Assembly (NCBI RefSeq): GCF_030013595.1
Contig: NZ_CP122768.1
Direction: 5' to 3' (one strand)
DNA from: Escherichia coli
GTDB lineage: Bacteria; Pseudomonadota; Gammaproteobacteria; Enterobacterales; Enterobacteriaceae
Length of the DNA: 64,000 bases
The number at the start of each line of letters is the position of its first letter. Positions within the stretch are counted from its first letter, which is position 1. Positions 2,121 through 45,360 of this stretch are shown here, in pieces. The notes beneath the pieces are model-generated. The model did no database searches, had not been told where the DNA came from, and worked only from the letters and a program-made list of their open reading frames with translations. The position numbers and the translations under genes were made by a program.

Positions 2121-5100
2121 TCAGCTGATACTGATGCCTGCGGTGGCTTTCTTCATCACCACAACCAGCAAATCGCTGATACTTGCTGTGGGATACCAGT
2201 TATTTACCAGCCATGCTGACACCGAAAACTCCAGTGTCATGTGACCGTGACCGGCAGGCATATCAATAACACCACTGTAAATCAGCGTATTATCCAGCGC
2301 GGTACGGTTATAAATTTCAGCACCGTTTTTCCGTACTATCAGACGGCATGAGGAGTAAATATCAGTATGCTCTTTCTCATGTTTAGCGCCGCTGAATGCC
2401 ACCGCCGGAATAACAATCTGCCGGTCAAACGGCTGATCGTCATAAACCCTGACGGTGATGGTCCCTGATGGCCACCGTTCCGGTGCACGGGAGTCCCGGG
2501 GGAAAGCTTTGCCCACTGTTTTAACGAGATCGCCTTCAATCTGGTTCGCGGACAGTTTTCCCAGAACCCGACAGTTCTCGTTAATCGTGACGTTGTTGAG
2601 CGTCCCGGAGTTCGCATTCACGTTACCGCTGATATCGGCATTTTTCGCCGTCAGCCGCCCGTCCGGTGTCAGGGAAAATGCCGGTGGATTTCCGCCGCTG
2701 GTAATGGTGGGAGCCGTCAGGCGTTTCAGGAACACGTCGTTCATGAATATCTGATCGCCCTGACCAACAAACATCGGCTTTGTGTTGCCATTCGCAGGAT
2801 TAATCATCGCAATCCGGTCAGCAGCCAGAAGCACCTGACTCTGCATACCTGCTGGCGTATTCTCAATACCGGCTCCGATACCCGCAATATAAAGGCGTCC
2901 GTCCTTCATCTGCTGCAGTTTCACGGCCCACATGCTGTTCAGGTTATTATTTGTATCAACCTGAACTTTCTGTATCTGCTGGATTGCCGCGCTCTGATTT
3001 TCCAGTTTCTTATTGACGGTCTGTGTGATTTCATTGCTGACATCCGTAATGGACGTCCTGATTTCAGCCAGGTCAGGCGCAAGCTGATCGTTATCAATCT
3101 GCGTCCACAGCTCCTGAGCCAGATGGGTTTTCCCTATCTCGCCTTTGAAAAAATCCAGATAGCCGGATGCGTCATCACTCGGCTGACCGACAGCCTCCAC
3201 GAATGCCGATTTGCCAACAGTGTTCACACTGCGAACGTAAAAATAATAATCATGGCCCGGCTTAATATTGATACTGGCAGCTATCCAGTACAGCGCCGTA
3301 CCAAGATAGCGCGCTGTGGTTTCAACCTGCCTGATATCCGCAATCCGCTTTTCCGAGAACCAGAACTCAAACTGTACCGTCGGATCATAAACGGCAAGAT
3401 GCGGCGTGGCGGTTATCTGAAAATAGCCCGGCGTCAGCTCAATCCGCGACGGTGCTGCCGGTGCGGCAATCCGGAACGATACCGATGCCGGATCGCCCTG
3501 CTGTCCCCACGCATTTACCGCCCGGACTGTCAGCCTGTAGTTCCCCAGCGCCAGCTGCCTGAAGCGGTATGTGGTTTCCGTCGTCCGGGCCGTGCTGACC
3601 AGCCGCTCACTGCCGTCATCGGCGGCCACGGTCAGGCGAAGCATAAAGCTCACACCCTTCACCACCTTCGGCGTGTCCCAGCGCGCCAGCACCTGATACT
3701 CCCCACTGTCTGCGGTGACTTCTGCGGTCAGGTGCTGCACCGCTGGCGGCGTGACACCATTCACCGTGCCGCTCTGGTCGCCGTCAAAGTGCGCCCCGTT
3801 ATCCACGATGGCTTCTTTCTCCGGTACATGCTGCACGGCAGTGATGGCATACGTGCCGTCATCGTTCTCACGGATACTCACACAGCGGAACAGGCGCTGG
3901 CGCAACGTCGGCAGCTTCAGCCCCCACACGCTGTATTCTGCAACGCCGTCAGGAACACGGCTCACTTTCACCTTCACACCGTCGGTGACGGACTGAACCT
4001 CCACGCTGACCGGATTGCCACTTCCGTCAACCAGGCTTATCAGCGTGGTACCGGAGGATGGCAGCGTGATTTCACGGTCGAGCGTCAGCGTCCGGGTCTG
4101 GCTGTTCACCGCCAGCACGCGCCCGCCGGTGCTGATACCGGCATAGTCATCATCGCAGATTTCAATGACATCGCCCGGCACATGGCGAAGCCCTTCTGCG
4201 CCCACGCTGAAATCCACGGTCTGCGTTTCCAGCAGTTCCGTTTTAATCAGCCACAGCCCGGCGCGGTGTGCCTGCCCCCGGCTGGTACAGCCAAAGGCAT
4301 CCATCTTCGTAACATTACGACCGTAACGGGCAATGGCCTGCGTATCTTCAACAAGCTCTGTCGCCGTCTCCCAGCCGTTATCCGGGTCAATCCAGTTCAC
4401 CTCAACGGCATTATGGCGGTCCTTCAGGGCGCTGAAGCTGTAGCGGAACGGCGCGCCATCATCCGGCATCACCACATTACTGCGGTTATAGGTCCACACC
4501 TTATCCGACGGTCGGTCCTGCACGAACGTCAGCGTCTGCCCGTTCCATACCGGCATACAGCGCATCGCCGAGCAGAAATCGCTGAGCACATCCCACGCCT
4601 TACGTTGTGTGGTCAGCCAGGCATTACAGGTGATGCGCGGCTCCGTGCCGCCAAAACCGTCCGGCACCGACTGGTCGCAGTACTGGCCGATGACATACAG
4701 CGCCCATTTATCCACATCTGCCGCACCAAGACGTTTCCCCATGCCGTAGCGCGGATGGGTCAGCATATCCCACAGACACCAGGCCATGTTGTTGCTGTAT
4801 GCTGGCTTAAACGTTCCATCCCAGATACCGCTGTATTGCCGCGTCTGCGGGTTATAGTTCGACGGCACCTGCAGAATGCGCCCGCGCAGATGATAATTAC
4901 GGCTCACCTGCTGGCTGCCGAACTGCTCCGAGTCCACCTGCACGCCGACCAGTGCCGTGTTCGGGTAGCACTGTTTCACATCTATAATTTCGGTGTATGA
5001 CGACCAGAGCGTTTTGTTCTGCAGCTGGTCTGTGGTGCTGTCCGGCGTCATCCTGCGCATCCGGATACTGAACGGGCGCGGCGGCAGGTTATCCACCACC

Positions 5101-16683: not shown

Positions 16684-20364
<3,681 letters not shown>

Positions 20365-20390
<26 letters not shown>

Positions 20391-20910
20391 TCAGCAACCC
20401 CGGTATCAGTTCATCCAGCGCGGCTGCTTTGTTCATGGCTTTGATGATATCCCGTTTCAGGAAATCAACATGTCGGTTTTCCAGTTCCGGAAAACGCCGC
20501 TGCACCGACAGGGGGATCCCGTCGAGAATACTGGCAATTTCACCTGCGATCCGCGACAGCACGAAAGTACAGAATGCGGTTTCCACCACTTCAGCGGAGT
20601 CTCTGGCATTCTTCAGTTCCTGTGCGTCGGCCTGCGCACGCGTAAGTCGATGGCGTTCGTACTCAATAGTCCCTGGCTGGAGATCTGCCTCGCTGGCCGC
20701 CCTGTAATCCTCAACCTCTTTACGGAGTTTTTCATTTTCGATATCAGCTTCCCTCTGCGCATACCACTGAATTGCCATGGCGGTATCAAATACAGATTCA
20801 ACGCCCTTACCACCTCCGGAGACGCAAGGGAGTCCCTGAGACTGCCAGCGTTCAATCGTTCGCGGATCCACGTTGAAAATTTCGGCAAGTTTCTTTTTAT
20901 TAACCTTCAT
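20365..20910 (-). CDS. Nu1: terminase small subunit Nu1
   Basis: 181 aa, N-terminal HTH, λ Nu1-like sequence. Confidence 0.9.
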
Positions 20911-21059
20911 GAAACAGTCTCACAATAAATACAGGGTCCGACATGAAAGTGCCCGAAAATGACTTTTTTATGCGTTTTCATGTCGGACCTTTTACGGATT
21001 CGATATTAGAAAAAACAAATAGTTATGTTCGAGAAGTACCGACATGATTTTCCCCGGAA

Positions 21060-21110
21060 AATTTTCATAAATAGCGAAAACCCGCGAGGTCGCCGCCCCG
21101 TAACCTGTTG
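21060..21110. other. cos: cos site (cosN 12-nt cohesive end about 21087-21098, revcomp of GGGCGGCGACCT) with flanking cosB/cosQ
   Basis: Sequence cgcgaggtcgccgccc matches the λ left-end cohesive sequence in reverse orientation, just upstream of Nu1. Confidence 0.8.
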
Positions 21111-21252
21111 GATCGACGGAAAGGACCCGTAAATGAGATGCTTTGTTGTTTTCTTGTTGGCTGTTCAACTACATGCAAGCATATGGCATAATATTTAATT
21201 GATAATCTAATAGTTATAAAAACTTGCCCCAAAACCTTAACGGAGACTAAGA

Positions 21253-21945
21253 ATGTCCAGAGAAGGAACGTTAGATTTATTGCAAGAAGTTGAAGAAACC
21301 GTTGAAATATTAAAAGATACGCAACAAATAAAACCAGTAAAGGTTAAATCAATACTTGAAAATTTAAGAAGCGCATTAGAATACGTTGCGAATGATAGTT
21401 ATGAAAAACATACCACTAACCAATCAACCCCTCGGCCAAAAATTTATTTCCCATACGGCGAGAAAAAATTTTTAGATGCTTTCTTTATTAAAAAATTAAA
21501 CTGCCAGCAACCTGAATTATCTCCATTATATGCAGTTTTTGTTTCAATCCAAGACTATCAAACTGGTAATAACTGGCTTGGAATGATGTGTAACCTCACG
21601 AACGAAGCAAAACATAGGCAACCAATCCCATTGAGTGAAGATAGTATTGTTCGAGGAATAGATGTTAATATCAATGGGTTTGGATTAATTAAGGCAGATG
21701 CTACATCAAAAATCATTTTCAGAGATAATTTCACCAATGGACAGAGAATTGAAGACTTCACCATTGAAAATGGTAAAGTTGAAAAATCAGGGAACGGAAT
21801 ACCCATCAATATTAACATGACCGAAGAGAAAAAAATAAGATTCCACGGTACAGATTATGAGGTTATTCCTTTTGTAGAGTTATGTCTAAAAGAAATAAGA
21901 GATTTTGTTAATGAAGCATATGAAATTTTAGATGCCATTGAATAA
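21253..21945 (+). CDS. hypothetical protein (230 aa), AT-rich accessory gene in the bor slot
   Basis: Long ORF with GGAG RBS, candidate TTCAAC-N17-CATAAT promoter upstream, strongly AT-rich codons, opposite strand to lysis genes; no motif recognised. Confidence 0.7.
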   Translation: MSREGTLDLLQEVEETVEILKDTQQIKPVKVKSILENLRSALEYVANDSYEKHTTNQSTPRPKIYFPYGEKKFLDAFFIKKLNCQQPELSPLYAVFVSIQDYQTGNNWLGMMCNLTNEAKHRQPIPLSEDSIVRGIDVNINGFGLIKADATSKIIFRDNFTNGQRIEDFTIENGKVEKSGNGIPININMTEEKKIRFHGTDYEVIPFVELCLKEIRDFVNEAYEILDAIE

Positions 21946-22040
21946 TAATGATTAAGTAACATGGCAGGTAATCTATTTAAACCGGCCATGTTACAAATCA
22001 TTGACGTAGAGAAAAAATGTAAAGTATATCCTTTATATAC

Positions 22041-22562
22041 TCAATTGTAATTTGATGTCCTCACCGACTCATAAACGCGCTCACACGTCATTCCAGCCCG
22101 GTAGCTTTCGTCAGATCGCTCAGCATAATATCGAGCTTCTTCTGCAAGGCGGCCGAGCATGTCGGCGAGCACTGCGGCGTCGGCTCCGGCTGTTTTGCTT
22201 CTGACGGCAGCGGCAAGATCTGCGGTGTGCTTTGCGGCGTCCAGGCGGGCGGCAAGCTTTGTTGCTTCGGTGCGCAGCTGGTTAACAGTGGCAGACAGGC
22301 CAGCAGCAGTGGCAGCAGATTTAGCTGCTTGTGCTTGTGCATCTTTTACAGCCTCATCACGGGCAATTATGCGCCCTTGTTCAATCATGCGGGCTGCGGT
22401 CTGCGCGTTCGCTGTTTGCGATGATTCCGCGCTGTCACGTTCCGCCCACTTTTTTTCCCAACCGCGGCTACACCATATATTTCCAGCGATAAACGCACTG
22501 GTCACTAGTACCGCGGCAACAATAAGCTGGGAGCACAGGCTCACTGGTCTATCCCCCAGCAC
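22041..22562 (-). CDS. Rz: i-spanin Rz
   Basis: N-terminal TM segment, Ala-rich coiled-coil periplasmic region, overlaps 3' end of endolysin gene. Confidence 0.75.
22088..22342 (-). CDS. Rz1: o-spanin Rz1 (lipoprotein) embedded in +1 frame of Rz
   Basis: Signal peptide with lipobox LLTSC, proline-rich mature region, fully nested within Rz. Confidence 0.7.
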
Positions 22563-23074
22563 GTCAACGCGCTTTCCTGATCACGGCGAATAACCTGACC
22601 GTAACAGTTATTTGAACGAATGCGGCAATCACGCCCCCTGTCCTTAATCCACCAGCGAATCGCCTCGCATGCACCTTTACGATCACCAGCATTCAGCCGC
22701 TTATAAAACGTCGACGGAAAACACTTACCGGGGCCAATGTTATAGGGACAAAATGACGCGATACCCGCTTTCTGCGGTTCGGTCAGTGGTACTTTAATAT
22801 TGCGCTCCACCCATGCCAGCGCCTTATCACGTTCAATGGCGTTCACACGGTTGCATTTTTCCCTAGACAACTTCATGCCGGGAACAACAGGCTTACCGTC
22901 CACCAGAATGGCACCACGGCAGATGGTCCAGATACCAGTACCATCACGGTATGCCGTGGTGTGGTTACCTTCTTTTTCGTCCAGAAACTGGTCGAGAATA
23001 TCAGGCGCAGGCGCACCGACGGCAATCAGTGCCAGAACGGCAGCTGACAGGCCGTATTTGATTTTTGCATTCAT
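22541..23074 (-). CDS. R: SAR endolysin (GH24 lysozyme with N-terminal signal-anchor-release domain)
   Basis: E-x8-D-x5-T catalytic triad ([16 protein letters not shown]), Gly/Ala-rich weakly hydrophobic N-terminus; resembles DLP12 RrrD. Confidence 0.9.
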
Positions 23075-23201
23075 GGATATTTATCAGGATTTATCAGTTT
23101 CTAATCTATAGATATGTTAAGCACTCAGCCCGTCAGTGGTGGATACTGGCGTATGTAATAAAGGGGGGATGGCTGATTACCTCTGATAAGGGAATGTAAC
23201 T

Positions 23202-23498
23202 ATGAACGGTATAGATCCATTCAAACCAATCAGTAAGCAACTTGATGTGGTATTACCACAACTGATAAAACACGACGACCTTCTGGATAAAGTGTTGCCT
23301 TTTTATATTGCTGTTACCGCAAAATTATCAGGTAAAACTCGAGAAGAGGTTCTCAAATATAACATGCTGGCTTTAGAAACAATTTTTGGCTCAGAAAAAG
23401 CGGGAAAATCACCCAAAGAGCTGGCAGAATCTCAATTTGCTTATATGACAAATATAAGAGTATCCGAAATCTTTGATAAGCTACCAGACATTGAATAA
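23202..23498 (+). CDS. hypothetical protein (98 aa), AT-rich, opposite strand inside lysis cassette
   Basis: ORF with AT-rich composition between endolysin and holin genes; no motif recognised. Confidence 0.55.
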   Translation: MNGIDPFKPISKQLDVVLPQLIKHDDLLDKVLPFYIAVTAKLSGKTREEVLKYNMLALETIFGSEKAGKSPKELAESQFAYMTNIRVSEIFDKLPDIE

Positions 23499-23499
23499 T

Positions 23500-23525
23500 T
23501 TCTAAGCGGCAGTAATGCCGCTTTA
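23500..23525. terminator. hairpin between convergent 98-aa and 72-aa genes (possibly bidirectional terminator)
   Basis: agcggca-gtaa-tgccgct stem-loop flanked by T/A runs. Confidence 0.45.
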
Positions 23526-23741
23526 TATTTTTTCAGCCAAATTTTTCAAGAACTGTTTGGCATGTTTTACCGCAGTAACTTCATAATAATCCAAGCCAGC
23601 TCCTTCAAGTCGCTCAAGGGTGATGTTCAGATCAAAAATTTCACCGGCAAAATGTTCTTTGTCCTGTAACGTTAAGATTACCGTAACTTTATTCTCAAAA
23701 TTGCGGATCCCTTTCACAATCAGTTCATAGTTTTGAGTCAT
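23523..23741 (-). CDS. small lysis-region protein (72 aa), YdfR/DUF1327-like by recollection
   Basis: Co-oriented ORF immediately downstream of holin gene; family assignment from memory only. Confidence 0.6.
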   Translation of the reverse strand: MTQNYELIVKGIRNFENKVTVILTLQDKEHFAGEIFDLNITLERLEGAGLDYYEVTAVKHAKQFLKNLAEKI

Positions 23742-23745
23742 TGAA

Positions 23746-23961
23746 TTACTCTCCCCGTGCAGCCTTTCGTCTGTCTTCTCTGATTTTGAAATACAGATTT
23801 GTCAGATAAGTCAAAAAGCCCAGAACTAGACTTCCCAGCACACCAATTGCAGCCCACTGTGACGGACTGACCTGATCCAACCACTGCAAAAACCAGTATC
23901 CCGCACTACCAGCGGATGTTCCGTAGGCAATGCCAGTTGAGATTTTGTCCATTGATTTCAT
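23746..23961 (-). CDS. S: class II holin (S21/EssD-type pinholin, 71 aa, dual-start MKSM)
   Basis: Two TM segments, dual start motif, C-terminal basic tail; matches phage 21 S / DLP12 EssD. Confidence 0.9.
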
Positions 23962-24079
23962 AGCAACGCCTCCGCCAGTAACGGATTGCGTAGTTCTTAT
24001 ATTGGGAAGGGAGAAAAAGAAGACCGCAGCATAACTATCACTGATGAATTCAGGATAGCCAGTGGCTACGGCTCAGTTA

Positions 24080-24155
24080 TGGTGCTGGTTAACGGACTTG
24101 AACCGCTACCCATTCGCTTACAAGGCGACCGCTCTACCATTGGAGCTAAACCAGC
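24080..24155 (-). tRNA. tRNA-like gene, anticodon UGU (Thr) by hand folding
   Basis: 76 nt cloverleaf: acceptor GCTGGTT/AACCAGC, D-arm GCTC…GAGC, anticodon loop CTTGTAA, T-loop TTCAAGT, CCA end. Confidence 0.55.
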
Positions 24156-24160
24156 ATATT

Positions 24161-24235
24161 TGGCGGGACAGCGTGGACTCGAACCACGATAAGAAGGTTA
24201 ACAGCCTTCCGTAATGACCTTTATACGACTGACCC
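24161..24235 (-). tRNA. second tRNA-like element, anticodon GUU (Asn?) with imperfect acceptor/D arm; possibly a pseudo-tRNA
   Basis: T-arm CGTGG-TTCGAGT-CCACG, anticodon stem GAAGG/CCTTC loop CTGTTAA, CCA end; one acceptor mismatch. Confidence 0.4.
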
Positions 24236-40104: not shown

Positions 40105-40177
40105 TGATTTTATTTTGACTGATAGTGACCTGTTCGTTGCAACAAATTGATAAGCAATGCTTTTTTATAATGCCAAC

Positions 40178-40192
40178 TTAGTATAAAAAAGC
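40178..40192. other. attL: attL core (15-bp GCTTTTTTATACTAA, reverse orientation) at prophage/chromosome junction
   Basis: ttagtataaaaaagc flanked by λ P'-arm sequence on the int side and attB-like CCTGC on the ybhC side. Confidence 0.8.
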
Positions 40193-40238
40193 AGGCTTCA
40201 ACGGATTCATTTTTCTATTTCATAGCCCGGAGCAACCT

Positions 40239-41522
40239 GTGAACACATTTTCAGTTTCCCGTCTGGCGCTGGCATTGGCTTTTGGCGTGACGCTGACCGC
40301 CTGTAGCTCAACACCGCCCGATCAACGTCCTTCTGATCAAACCGCGCCTGGTACCTCTTCTCGCCCGATTCTGTCGGCAAAAGAAGCGCAGAATTTCGAT
40401 GCTCAACACTATTTTGCATCCCTGACACCAGGTGCGGCAGCGTGGAATCCTTCCCCGATTACCCTGCCTGCGCAACCTGACTTTGTTGTCGGCCCGGCGG
40501 GTACTCAAGGTGTAACGCATACCACGATTCAGGCGGCGGTAGATGCGGCAATTATCAAGCGCACCAACAAGCGCCAGTATATTGCCGTGATGCCTGGTGA
40601 GTATCAGGGAACGGTGTATGTCCCTGCCGCTCCGGGTGGAATTACTCTGTACGGTACAGGTGAAAAACCGATTGATGTGAAGATTGGGCTTTCCCTTGAT
40701 GGTGGCATGAGCCCTGCCGACTGGCGTCACGACGTCAACCCGCGCGGCAAATATATGCCAGGTAAACCGGCGTGGTATATGTACGATAGCTGCCAGAGCA
40801 AACGCAGCGACAGTATCGGCGTTCTCTGCTCTGCGGTCTTCTGGTCACAAAACAATGGCCTGCAACTGCAAAACCTGACCATCGAAAACACGCTGGGCGA
40901 TAGCGTAGATGCGGGTAACCATCCGGCGGTGGCACTGCGTACTGATGGCGACAAAGTGCAGATCAATAACGTCAACATTCTCGGTCGTCAGAACACCTTC
41001 TTTGTCACCAACAGCGGTGTGCAGAACCGTCTGGAAACCAACCGTCAGCCGCGTACTCTGGTGACCAACAGTTACATTGAAGGGGATGTGGATATCGTTT
41101 CTGGTCGCGGCGCAGTGGTGTTCGATAACACCGAATTCCGCGTGGTGAACTCACGTACTCAGCAAGAAGCGTATGTGTTTGCACCGGCAACACTGTCTAA
41201 CATCTATTACGGTTTCCTCGCCGTAAACAGCCGTTTCAATGCTTCCGGTGATGGCGTGGCGCAACTGGGCCGCTCGCTGGATGTTGATGCCAATACCAAC
41301 GGTCAGGTGGTGATCCGTGATAGCGCCATCAACGAAGGTTTTAACACAGCCAAACCGTGGGCTGATGCGGTGATCTCTAATCGTCCGTTTGCGGGTAACA
41401 CCGGCAGCGTTGATGATAACGACGAAGTACAGCGTAATCTGAATGACACTAACTACAACCGCATGTGGGAATACAATAACCGCGGCGTGGGTAGCAAAGT
41501 GGTTGCAGAGGCGAAGAAGTAA
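40239..41522 (+). CDS. ybhC: YbhC (pectinesterase-fold outer-membrane lipoprotein / acyl-CoA thioesterase)
   Basis: 427 aa, lipoprotein signal (LTAC), known neighbour of attλ in E. coli. Confidence 0.85.
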   Translation: MNTFSVSRLALALAFGVTLTACSSTPPDQRPSDQTAPGTSSRPILSAKEAQNFDAQHYFASLTPGAAAWNPSPITLPAQPDFVVGPAGTQGVTHTTIQAAVDAAIIKRTNKRQYIAVMPGEYQGTVYVPAAPGGITLYGTGEKPIDVKIGLSLDGGMSPADWRHDVNPRGKYMPGKPAWYMYDSCQSKRSDSIGVLCSAVFWSQNNGLQLQNLTIENTLGDSVDAGNHPAVALRTDGDKVQINNVNILGRQNTFFVTNSGVQNRLETNRQPRTLVTNSYIEGDVDIVSGRGAVVFDNTEFRVVNSRTQQEAYVFAPATLSNIYYGFLAVNSRFNASGDGVAQLGRSLDVDANTNGQVVIRDSAINEGFNTAKPWADAVISNRPFAGNTGSVDDNDEVQRNLNDTNYNRMWEYNNRGVGSKVVAEAKK

Positions 41523-41552
41523 GAGCTATTAACTATTTGCCGGATGCGGCGT

Positions 41553-42309
<757 letters not shown>

Positions 42310-42413
42310 ATCAGCATACTTGTCCTTAGCCTTCTGCAGTGACAGCTGGTAGTACAGCGTGCTTCTGGCCAGCCCTGCAGCCTTTAACAGGTCAGACTGG
42401 CAGTGTCCGCACC

Positions 42414-42944
42414 TCAGGCTCCGGATGACTTTCGTTTTTTCTCCAGCTCCTGGCGCTTTTTTTCCAGGAGATGCTCCTGCATGGCTTTCAGATATGCATT
42501 TTCTGCGCGAAGATAACGCAGCTCATTCTTCATCTCTTCCGGCGTCATGTTTGCCTCGTTTTCATGGGTATCATCAGAACGGGTCATGCTTTTCTCCTTC
42601 CTGCGCCTGATAAAGGCCTCATTACCAGATTTGCGGTAGCCTTTTATCCAGTTTTTAACCGTGTTGTGGCTGGGAATGTTAAACCGGGCAGCTACCCGGG
42701 GTAGAGACTCAGAATGCCCGAGAGCATAAAGAACCACGCAAAGTTTATCTTCAGGAGAATAGCTACGCTTGTGTCTGCAATCCAGTGCACGAGGACCGTG
42801 AAGAAGAAAAAGATTAATCCAGTGTGAGAGGCTGGTGTGAGAAAGTTGAAAGAGTTTTGCCGTAGAAATGATGCCTGCATGACCAGCCAGGTAATGATTT
42901 ACAGCGGCAAGTTTTACTTCAAATGAATGTTTCATAAACTGCAC
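42414..42944 (-). CDS. IS3-family transposase OrfA (HTH + leucine zipper); A-run slippery site near its 3' end for OrfAB fusion
   Basis: 176 aa; GAAAAAAAG-type slippery run at ~42420-42450. Confidence 0.8.
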   Translation of the reverse strand: MQFMKHSFEVKLAAVNHYLAGHAGIISTAKLFQLSHTSLSHWINLFLLHGPRALDCRHKRSYSPEDKLCVVLYALGHSESLPRVAARFNIPSHNTVKNWIKGYRKSGNEAFIRRRKEKSMTRSDDTHENEANMTPEEMKNELRYLRAENAYLKAMQEHLLEKKRQELEKKRKSSGA

Positions 42945-42986
42945 CTTCAGATGTCAGATTATGTCCAACATTTGGGGTGCAGTTCA

Positions 42987-43085
42987 GTAAACGCCTTATC
43001 CGGCCTACGGTTCGATGCGATTTGTAGGTCGGATAAGATGCGCCAGCATCGCATCCGACAATAAGTGCCGAATGCGACCTACATT
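42987..43085. repeat. REP/BIME palindromic units (the same cluster the IS interrupted; left remnant at 41538-41554)
   Basis: gccttatccggcctac and gtaggtcggataag…gcatccgaca palindromic units. Confidence 0.6.
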
Positions 43086-43098
43086 CACATGGCGCTTT

Positions 43099-45360
43099 TT
43101 ACATCTGACGGTTTTTATTGAAGTTAATCAAACTACCCGCCTTGATAATCTCGCGCTCTTCGGCCGTCAGGCTTTCCATGTAAAGCGTAATTTCCGTTAC
43201 CGGCGCATCTTCATGGATCACATAACCTTTAAACGTCGTACCCGGATTATCCAGCGCTGCTTTAATGCCAGGGATGTAAATGTAATCCCCCACTTCAAAC
43301 GTTGGTGCTTCCGCCATCTGCAGCGGTAACATCCCCCAGTTGATGACGTTAGAACGGTAGCGTTTAGTCGCGTACTCCTCGGCAATATTCGCCAGACCGC
43401 CAATCACACGCTGGCAGCTCGCCGCCTGCTCACGCGCAGAACCATCGCCTGGTTTCACCGCATAGACCATGCTGCCAATTTCAGTTTGCAGCGGATCAAT
43501 ATGCTCCTGACCAGCAATCTGCTTAATGCGCGCAAACACCTCTGTCAGCTCGCTGACATTCCCCGCCAGACGCTGATTTTCCAGCTCAGCAGTCGCTTTA
43601 CTTCTGCCAACATAACCTGGATCGCGGCGTGACAGGGTAAACTCCGCCAGACCAATCGGATTTGAACGATAAGAAGAGGTTTCACCGGAAGGGATCAGTT
43701 CGTCGGTGGTGGTCACTTCGTCGAGGATCTTCGAGCACACTTTGAGGACGATATTGTCAGTTAGCGCCCCCAATTCTGGCCAGTCTTTTATGTTCGGTCC
43801 GTAAATCAATGGTTGCTGGGTCGCCCCTTTCACAAAGCCCTGATAAACACGGTTTTTATACGGAGTTACATCGAAGGCGTACTCCGGTACGTTGTCCCAG
43901 CAATCAAGTTCGCTGGCAGAGGTTAAATAGCCACCGTTTGCCGCAGTCGCAGCGATAGAACGAGCGTCCATCAACGCCACCGCTGACATCTGCCCATTGG
44001 CTGGCTTAGAGCCTTCGCGGTTCGGGAAGTTACGCGTGGTGTGGCGAATACTCAAACCGTTGTTGATTGGCGTATCGCCCGCGCCAAAGCATGGGCCGCA
44101 GAACGCGGTTCTGATGATTGCGCCTGCGCCAATCAAATCTGCTACCACGCCTTTTTTGGCTAAATCCATAAACACCGGCTGTGATGACGGGTAAACCGCT
44201 AACGAGAAGGTGTCATTGCCACAGGATTGACCGCGCAGCGCATTCGCCGCCGCGATGACGTTTTCATAGTTACCGCCAGAACAGCCCGCGATAATCCCCT
44301 GCTGCACTTTCAGGCGACCATTTTCCACTTTATCCAGCAGCGAGAGTTTGGCTTTACCGTGCGCCACGCGTTCGGACTCAATTTCAATCTCACGCAGAAT
44401 ATCGGTCAGGTTCTGGTTCAGCGTGTCGATTTCATATACGTTGCTCGGGTGGAACGGCAGCGCAATCATTGGTTTGATGGCGCTTAAATCAACGCTGATG
44501 CAGCCATCGTAGTATGCCATCGGTTGAGGGTTAAGCTGGCAGTAATCCTGGCCGCGTCCGTGCAGCGCCAGCCAGTTATGGACTTCTTCATCGGTTTGCC
44601 AGACAGAACTTAAACAGGTCGTTTCAGTGGTCATAACGTCAACGCTGTTACGGAAATCGGTAGAGAGCGCAGCAACACCGGGACCTACGAATTCCATCAC
44701 TTTGTTTTTGACGTAGCCGTTTTTGAACACGGCACCGATGATAGCCAGCGCCACATCCTGTGGCCCCACATACGGCGCAGGCTTTCCGGTCAAATGCACC
44801 GCAACAACTCCCGGATAGTCGATATCCCATGTGTCATTAAGCAGCTGTTTTACCAACTCACCGCCACCCTCACCGACTGCCATTGTCCCTAATGCACCGT
44901 AACGGGTGTGGCTGTCTGACCCGAGGATCATTTTGCCGCCGCCTGCCATCATCTCACGCATATATTGATGGATGACCGCAATATGCGGAGGCACAAAAAT
45001 ACCGCCATAACGCTGAGCCGCCGATAAACCAAAAACATGGTCATCACCGTTAATGGTGCCGCCGACGGCGCAAAGTGAGTTATGGCAGTTGGTCAGCACA
45101 TACGGCAGCGGGAAACGTTCCATACCGGACGCTTTAGCGGTCTGTACAATACCAACAAAGGTAATATCGTGAGAGGCTAATGAATCAAACTTAATTTTAA
45201 GTTTATCCATATTTCCGGACGTATTATGAGAAGAGAGAATAGACCAGGCAATAGTGCCTTTTTTTGCTTCTTCTTTTTTAATTTCGCCGGTGAAATGTTC
45301 TTCGGCAATTATTTCGTTATTACTGGCGAGAAACACGCCTTTTTCAGATAACTTGATCAT
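43099..45360 (-). CDS. ybhJ: YbhJ aconitase-family protein
   Basis: 753 aa from ATG at MIKLSEKG (track start is an upstream GTG); aconitase-like Fe-S ligand region. Confidence 0.85.

Follow-up and report, generated by a model that had tools for sequence, protein, structure and literature searches.

In lambda and in many E. coli prophages, the interval between Rz and cos is usually occupied by Bor or Iss. What, then, is the role of a gene that fills this same slot, runs against the late genes, and differs sharply in composition from the phage DNA around it? The question is raised by the window analyzed here, a stretch of 64,000 nucleotides (64 kb) of DNA, which carries a lambdoid E. coli prophage on its minus strand, integrated at the lambda attachment site and adjoining ybhC. 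The flanking genes were identified by PHROGs searches, and all of them lie on the minus strand. On one side of the slot are a Q-like antiterminator (24510-25133), a holin (23746-23961), an endolysin (22541-23074) and an Rz-like spanin (22041-22562), and on the other side are the small terminase TerS/Nu1 (20365-20910) and the large terminase TerL/A (18465-20390). The packaging side of the slot is marked by the 12-nt cosN cohesive-end sequence (21087-21098, minus strand), an exact match to lambda GGGCGGCGACCT.

An AT-rich gene between the lysis genes and cos

The slot is filled by an AT-rich island of about 900 bp (21139-22040), treated below as cargo, with a GC content of 0.323. An earlier note on this DNA had described a single 693-bp gene in the bor slot, opposite to the lysis genes and far below the surrounding phage DNA in GC content, and both observations hold. 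The ORF (21253-21945, plus strand; 693 bp including the stop codon, with an ATG start) faces late genes on the minus strand, and the GC content on the two sides of the island is close to 0.54 (0.539 for the terminase genes, 0.541 for Rz plus R). The kilobase bin 21001-22000 is the lowest in GC of the whole window (0.342, the next lowest being 0.410 and 0.412), and the ORF itself has a GC content of 0.326 and a GC3 of 0.255. Beside the ORF, the island leaves 114 bp upstream and 95 bp downstream, which is no room for a second gene. The encoded protein, of 230 residues, 26.4 kDa and pI 5.0, belongs to the unannotated family phrog_13652. Its N-terminus is hydrophilic and without a signal peptide, and the maximum Kyte-Doolittle mean over 19 residues is 0.77, in agreement with the previous reading that a transmembrane segment is absent.

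The signals around the gene were examined next to those of related loci. The GGAG ribosome binding site noticed earlier is seen in the sequence as a Shine-Dalgarno element 7 nt before the ATG (21242-21245, plus strand), and purine-rich GGAG, GAGG or AAGG sequences stand at the equivalent place in related loci. The promoter proposed together with it, TTCAAC-N17-CATAAT with a TG extension, fared less well. The sequence is present on the plus strand (21164-21192), with TTCAAC at 21164-21169, a 17-nt spacer and CATAAT at 21187-21192, preceded by TGG, but it is weak: TTCAAC scores three out of six in the -35 hexamer, the whole element falls under the threshold of the promoter scanner, and promoter-like matches in this AT-rich stretch occur at chance density (5 found, 4.8 expected). 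Nor is it conserved, as none of 8 related loci has it in the aligned upstream region. When 9 enterobacterial loci were aligned, a conserved block emerged, TAGnTATAA(n)A, 32-42 nt before the ATG (21211-21221, plus strand). Its TAGnTATAA columns are invariant in all 9 loci, in upstream regions that otherwise average 63% identity, and in one locus (L026) the block is duplicated in tandem. Judging from this conservation, it may be a candidate -10 region or the site of a regulator.

Directly after the stop codon, the sequence forms a stem-loop (21946-22003). The perfect 10-bp hairpin stem that had been pointed out downstream of the gene was recovered by an inverted-repeat scan as GTAACATGGC/GCCATGTTAC (21956-21965 and 21985-21994), and it proved to be the core of this longer, interrupted stem. 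Folding of the 106 nt from 21940 to 22045 gives -29 kcal/mol, much more stable than shuffled sequence (z = -6.6). Since no T-run follows the hairpin, it is not a canonical intrinsic terminator; it is probably a transcript end or an insulator. In about 15 of 23 homologous loci the stop codon is likewise followed by a stem-loop, unrelated in sequence and sometimes with a T-run, and this recurrence fits the notion of an independent transcription unit.

A widespread family at the lysis-packaging junction

Is this gene an orphan, as the earlier note supposed? It is not, as hundreds of full-length relatives exist. The protein matches phrog_13652, a family of unknown function, from end to end (E 9e-107). 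Its 59 close relatives, all named 'hypothetical protein', come from Enterobacter, Klebsiella, Cronobacter, Citrobacter, Raoultella, Atlantibacter and E. coli. When 1.84 billion cluster representatives were searched exhaustively with phmmer, about 298 clusters at 50% identity were returned (E<=1e-3), the members of which are nearly all 220-250 residues long and aligned over their full length. Foldseek gave 105 matches in AFDB50 at E<1e-3, essentially all labeled 'Uncharacterized' and spanning Proteobacteria, Firmicutes, Bacteroidota, Spirochaetes and candidate phyla. Conservation over the full length across these relatives indicates that the family is real and under purifying selection for a full-length product.

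The same family is undescribed in every source that we searched. The query has no match in Pfam or in NCBIfam, and no Pfam HEPN family was hit at E<=0.1 by the query or by 108 diverse members. PADLOC-DB v2.0.0 gave no component-model match beyond a single hit to BrxC, which we rejected as an identity for the protein, reading this match of 45 residues (E 0.0077, 11.9 bits) as noise. Sequence and profile searches of the PDB at E<=10 returned only chance hits, with no HEPN or HepS entry among them. In a set of 5.8 billion proteins, every name retrieved by a profile search was 'hypothetical protein', and the hits had no Pfam domains. No relative turned up by tblastn in 50,697 cultured phage genomes, and among the papers searched by text none mentions the RefSeq protein WP_073528137 or phrog_13652.

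How is the gene distributed among related prophages? It is present, at 99% identity, in 4 of 5426 complete E. coli genomes, and the flanking Nu1/cos and lysis sequences in 4705 of the same 5426. On the cos side, homology with other lambdoid prophages, for example that of E. coli 536, ends at about position 21138. Three of the E. coli loci were inspected. In two of them, S43 and MB06022, the gene lies in a decayed prophage adjoining paoCD, and the MB06022 copy is split by IS1; in TK3889, the packaging and lysis genes around the gene look intact. Related prophages hold other genes in the Rz-cos interval instead. In E. coli 536 these are iss (a bor homologue, on the same strand as the ORF), a small hypothetical gene and one that is tonB-like; phage PhiR57_1 has Bor plus hypothetical genes, and phage IdasGreatGrand an anti-repressor.

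Homologs at 46-66% identity are found in prophages of the HK97-like, Gifsy-2/GpA-like and lambda-like kinds, where they have lysis genes on one side and terminase genes on the other, both on the opposite strand. In HK97-like prophages of Enterobacter and Raoultella the homolog stands between a GH19 endolysin/spanin and HNH-TerS-TerL; another homolog's prophage has a Hendrixvirinae-type small terminase and a GH108 endolysin, and yet another is of the Gifsy-2/GpA-DUF1441 type. A scan of IMG/VR, in which the neighbors were typed by tblastn with terminase and lysis proteins from homologous loci, yielded 28 loci with a homolog, and in at least 22 of these 28 it is flanked by packaging genes and by lysis genes, both encoded on the other strand. 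Placement at the lysis-packaging junction thus spans four terminase (packaging-module) types and three endolysin types. Relatives at 28-36% identity directly follow holin-endolysin-spanin genes at prophage ends. In these distant relatives the gene is on the strand of the lysis genes, directly downstream of them, so that it may be expressed with the late operon there. Two members that are very distant lie in the chromosome: the neighbors of one are PLD-nuclease, caspase-like and AAA genes, and the neighborhood of the other is unremarkable. Neighbors of the homologs in Enterobacter prophages include PHROG 'moron' glycosyltransferases. One of these, a recurrent neighbor of 485 residues, was considered as a partner and rejected: it is itself such a glycosyltransferase, it had no PADLOC hit, and it is missing from the window and from many loci.

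The gene is therefore patchily present at one site among close relatives and atypical in composition, as morons are, and many unrelated prophage backbones have the same family at the lysis-packaging junction, opposite in strand to the late genes. This strongly suggests that it is cargo, as the earlier note had read it, and on the sequence evidence cargo (moron) status is our best-supported conclusion. Cargo similar to Bor, that is, a surface protein, was rejected because the protein has neither a signal peptide nor a transmembrane segment.

What else could such a gene be, given this distribution? A non-functional remnant, or a spurious ORF in AT-rich DNA, would agree with the rarity of the gene in E. 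coli and with the copy interrupted by IS1, but hundreds of full-length relatives with a maintained length, invariant residues and a confident fold prediction speak against it. Because of this conservation it is effectively excluded, as far as sequence data can refute it. It is also very unlikely that the protein serves a late function of the phage tied to lysis or packaging, for example as a lysis-timing or DNA-end accessory protein. Nearly all informative contexts, including those of relatives at only 28% identity, do place the gene beside a lysis cassette, as this reading would explain, and in distant relatives it follows the lysis genes on their own strand. In the window and in the enterobacterial loci, however, it runs against the late operon, its composition is foreign, the 50,697 cultured phage genomes hold no relative, and most related prophages lack it and have bor/iss or other genes in the slot. 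Lysis and packaging cannot depend on a gene that most related prophages do without. Moreover, the ends of lysis modules are known moron sites, which counts against a late function as well. Marginally more credible, and still improbable, is a toxin for prophage maintenance or competition, either as part of an addiction module with an unrecognized RNA antitoxin or as a growth-arrest factor. The island is too small for a second gene, no partner gene recurs across contexts, and an Rfam search over positions 19000-26000 found nothing in the island (21139-22040). An inverted-repeat scan of 20900-22100, which detects inverted and not direct or tandem repeats, found only six pairs and nothing resembling the array of a type III antitoxin. 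A type III toxin-antitoxin system or a partner ncRNA was consequently supported by neither of the two analyses over the respective ranges. The only ncRNA candidate close to the island, a hit to an miRNA model at 20931-20995, was dismissed as chance (E 0.45; its 24 bits fall far below the gathering score of 90). The same Rfam search also returned tRNAs further along the window.

A predicted HEPN-like bundle with an inserted beta-sheet domain

If the gene is cargo, what does it encode? The AlphaFold2 model, built on a 23-sequence alignment, has a pLDDT of 88. Residues 1-121 (21253-21615, plus strand) comprise helices 1-3 of a HEPN-like bundle together with an insert between helices 2 and 3: the model has long helices at 3-23 and 28-53, a partly helical insert at 54-107 and a third helix at 108-121. 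A beta-sheet domain between helix 3 and helix 4 follows (residues 122-203; 21616-21861, plus strand), with a modeled seven-stranded sheet at 127-197, and a long C-terminal helix 4 (residues 204-227; 21862-21933, plus strand) is modeled as closing the bundle. Among the best 20 fold hits, about 11 are HEPN proteins, including LsoA, HI0074, HepT-type toxins, Csm6 and Csx1. A HEPN domain is a bundle of four helices in which a variable insert separates helices 2 and 3; the Rx4-6H motif sits at the end of helix 3, with a polar N, D or H after the R, and helix 2 bears a second conserved acidic motif (PMC3710099). As modeled, the protein shares with the HEPN superfamily the bundle and the insert.

The residues that the family conserves were counted over the 108 diverse members. 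H121 and K120 are present in all 108 and N117 in 102. H121 is placed at the C-terminal end of the helix 108-121, and N117 stands four residues before it, so that these two supply the His and the polar residue of Rx4-6H. Together they belong to a variant motif, T116-N117-E118-A119-K120-H121 (21598-21615, plus strand), which occupies, at the end of helix 3, the place of Rx4-6H in HEPN RNases. None of the 108 members has the Arg of the motif: position 116 holds T (77), N (11), V (9) or A (3) and in no case R or K, and no conservation is seen further upstream. Helix 2 presents a conserved face made up of K32, E36, R39, S40, D/E43, Y44 and D48 (E36 in 91/108, R39 in 103/108, S40 in 99/108 and D/E43 in 108/108), with the spacing E-x2-R as opposed to the E-x3-[KR] typical of HEPN. 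Q100 and the YFPY loop 65-68, both in the insert between helices 2 and 3, are nearly invariant. The beta domain is by far the most variable region, with a mean pairwise identity of 0.17 versus 0.51. The earlier note recognized no catalytic motif, but a candidate that is invariant or nearly so, N117-x-x-K120-H121, stands at the position that is catalytic in HEPN domains, within a HEPN-like fold. No sequence- or profile-level link to any described HEPN family came from Pfam, NCBIfam, PADLOC or PDB profile searches. Overall, we regard HEPN homology as rather probable and the catalytic competence of the HEPN-like site as plausible.

Which function would such a protein have in a lysogen? Our preferred reading, by analogy with HepS and Tha, is a self-contained HEPN-type RNase that confers abortive-infection defence, and we hold it tentatively, at slightly less than an even chance. 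HepS of Gifsy-1 is a prophage-borne, partner-less HEPN protein that rests as a tetramer. Tail-tip proteins of infecting siphoviruses activate it allosterically, whereupon it cleaves the anticodon loops of tRNAs (PMC13043305). Tha of S. aureus phages is likewise prophage-borne, partner-less and of the HEPN type, and it is activated by minor tail proteins (PMC11087260). In the model that we infer, HEPN homology is combined with RNase activity, expression in the lysogen, sensing by the beta domain and a defence phenotype. The cargo gene would be transcribed independently in the lysogen and would provide a 26-kDa cytoplasmic protein, built on a HEPN-like four-helix bundle and inactive at rest. A superinfecting phage would supply a component that switches the protein on, and the hypervariable beta-sheet domain just after His121 would be the likely sensor or gate, setting which phage component activates it. 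Once activated, the protein would cut tRNA or another RNA and the infection would be aborted. The putative non-canonical active site would consist of His121, Lys120 and Asn117 at the end of helix 3. The near-invariant Arg39 of helix 2 may stand in for the usual Arg of Rx4-6H, and the invariant K120 is, like R39, a possible substitute. A cytoplasmic, HEPN-like protein would in our view favor defence over a surface function of the Bor kind.

Two other readings accept the predicted structure and depart from the proposed RNase activity. The protein may be a HEPN-like but non-catalytic binder of nucleic acids, nucleotides or proteins, working, for example, in anti-defence, in the regulation of host physiology or as a decoy. 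All 108 members, after all, lack the canonical Arg of Rx4-6H, HEPN domains that lost the motif act as non-catalytic binding domains in some cases (PMC3710099), and a cargo position suits any accessory function. Against this, the invariance of H121 and K120 and the near-invariance of N117, R39, S40, D/E43 and Q100 across phyla resemble the signature of an active site, and some HEPN families have kept the His, lack the Arg and have conserved basic residues elsewhere (PMC3710099). We consider a non-catalytic binder unlikely. Alternatively, the helical bundle may resemble HEPN by convergence only and be part of a new fold combination with an unrelated biochemical activity. We judge this to be improbable too, though by a hair less so.

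It is tempting to speculate further on the RNase reading. The protein could be the founding example of undescribed one-protein immune sensors that occur across phyla, are mainly prophage-borne at the lysis-packaging junction, have an Arg-less HEPN RNase site (N-x2-K-H plus a helix-2 Arg), and are gated by a hypervariable beta-sandwich after the catalytic His. This wider proposal is doubtful; if it is true, sensor and effector would be interleaved within one fold, not fused end to end.

Relation to known prophage-borne systems

Should the RNase reading be correct, the family at stake is a large one: its roughly 300 clusters at 50% identity extend over Proteobacteria, Firmicutes, Bacteroidota and others. 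Without the motif Arg, the chemistry of its active site would be out of the ordinary, and so would an architecture in which a sensor domain is inserted beside the catalytic His. The lambdoid bor/iss slot, known for virulence morons, would swap these with defence cargo, with a bearing on prophage-mediated phage resistance in E. coli, Enterobacter, Klebsiella and Cronobacter. As the gene is small and standalone and offers clear targets for point mutation (H121, K120, N117 and R39), the hypothesis is cheap to test.

How does the protein compare with its nearest functional precedents? It differs from HepS in that HepS has a canonical R-x4-H motif, the Arg of which is absent here, and no HepS entry was returned by the PDB profile search. 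In the Gifsy-1 LT2 record, neither of two translated candidates was an ORF with R100-x4-H105. The likeness to Tha-1/Tha-2 is that of a single prophage protein in which HEPN is combined with another domain that is unassignable and presumed to sense a structural protein of the phage, and defence of the abortive type would be expected of both. Tha, however, has 301 residues, a C-terminal HEPN domain and a canonical R265NSIMH270 (PMC11087260), whereas the present protein has 230 residues and no motif Arg. The extra region of Tha is N-terminal and poorly predicted, whereas here a confidently predicted beta sheet is inserted inside the HEPN fold; the host phylum and the genomic site differ as well. 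Departures from the canonical motif have precedents among described HEPN families, since HEPN-T PaREP1/8 keeps the His without the motif Arg, and AbiV and AF0298 have relocated catalytic residues (PMC3710099). PaREP1/8, AbiV and AF0298 have no sequence-profile relationship to the phrog_13652 protein, possess no inserted beta domain, and differ from it in their conserved residues.

The comparison with the usual occupants of the slot is of another kind. The 230-residue protein shares with Bor/Iss the slot, the strand relative to the late genes, its moron status and, presumably, expression in the lysogen. Bor and Iss are outer-membrane lipoproteins of about 97 residues with a signal peptide; our protein is larger and acidic, is without a signal peptide or transmembrane segment, and is unrelated to them in sequence. 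It stands outside the families of HepS, Tha, AbiV, Abi_2, PADLOC v2 and Bor/Iss. If the RNase reading holds, a widespread and unannotated family would join the few prophage-borne, partner-less HEPN defence proteins, HepS and Tha.

Cargo-gene copies and variation in E. coli

The window ORF of the cargo gene differs from the E. coli S43 and TK3889 copies by four nonsynonymous and only two synonymous changes, counts that are too few for a statistical test. The replacements relative to S43/TK3889 are A119V (window 21607-21609), Q123K (21619-21621), A148T (21694-21696) and M189I (21817-21819), and two of the four lie on either side of the invariant K120-H121 of the cargo protein. Four E. coli genomes carry the cargo gene, and in MB06022 (L002 5144-7891), one of these, an IS1A is inserted in the gene, so that this copy is inactivated. 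An IS3 copy lies immediately past the split gene at this locus.

Distribution, upstream block and neighbours of the cargo gene

No relatives of the cargo protein were found in 50,697 cultured phage genomes. A relative of the gene was present on 28 IMG/VR contigs (L026-L053), many of them from isolate genomes and hence prophages, and the family seems to be restricted to temperate phages that are either integrated or uncultured. When nine enterobacterial loci were aligned, a TAGnTATAA(n)A block (window 21211-21221), located 32-42 nt ahead of the cargo-gene start codon, was found to be invariant, the remaining upstream sequence having diverged. This block could be a -10 element or a regulator-binding site. 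In one IMG/VR locus, L026, it is present as a tandem duplicate (about 4955-4990).

In HK97-like Enterobacter prophages, genes for a 485-aa and a 196-aa protein adjoin the cargo gene in divergent orientation, with a spacing of about 89 bp (L003 5381-7912; L019 4692-6721; also L032, L033, L041-L043, L048 and L049). The PHROGs classes of these two neighbours are 'moron' glycosyltransferase and glucosyltransferase. Since the cargo gene stands beside PHROGs morons in these prophages, the slot can hold a cargo-gene cluster.

Further elements of the prophage and its flank

A second AT-rich insert (window 23150-23750, GC 0.35-0.38) separates the endolysin and holin genes within the lysis cassette and may be another moron. 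It contains two small ORFs on opposite strands, one of 98 aa (23202-23498, + strand) belonging to phrog_25324, of unknown function, and the other of 72 aa (23523-23741, - strand) belonging to the YdfR-like phrog_2735; the same pair is also found in E. coli S43 and TK3889. The stretch from the Nu1 start codon to cosN contains imperfect inverted repeats (window 20930-21047) that have a CATGTCGGAC-like core in common. They pair 20930-20959 with 20965-20994 and 20978-20991 with 21034-21047, and are probably cosB terminase-binding (R) sites. The host DNA on the integrase side of the prophage (window 40150-44150) carries an IS3-family IS1397 copy adjoining ybhC and ybhJ.

A possible connection to tRNA

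AFDB entry A0A2G2Q1D2 (rank 12), a member of the cargo family, bears the UniProt name 'B3/B4 tRNA-binding domain-containing protein'. This name would suit a tRNA-directed activity, but it is uncorroborated, because none of the 108 cargo-family members scanned gave a B3_4 Pfam match. Two tRNA genes are located on the - strand at window 24083-24235, with the Q antiterminator on one side and the holin on the other; if the cargo protein cuts tRNA, these phage-borne tRNAs of the same late region could matter. tRNA genes at such a position are common to many Stx-like and lambdoid prophages.
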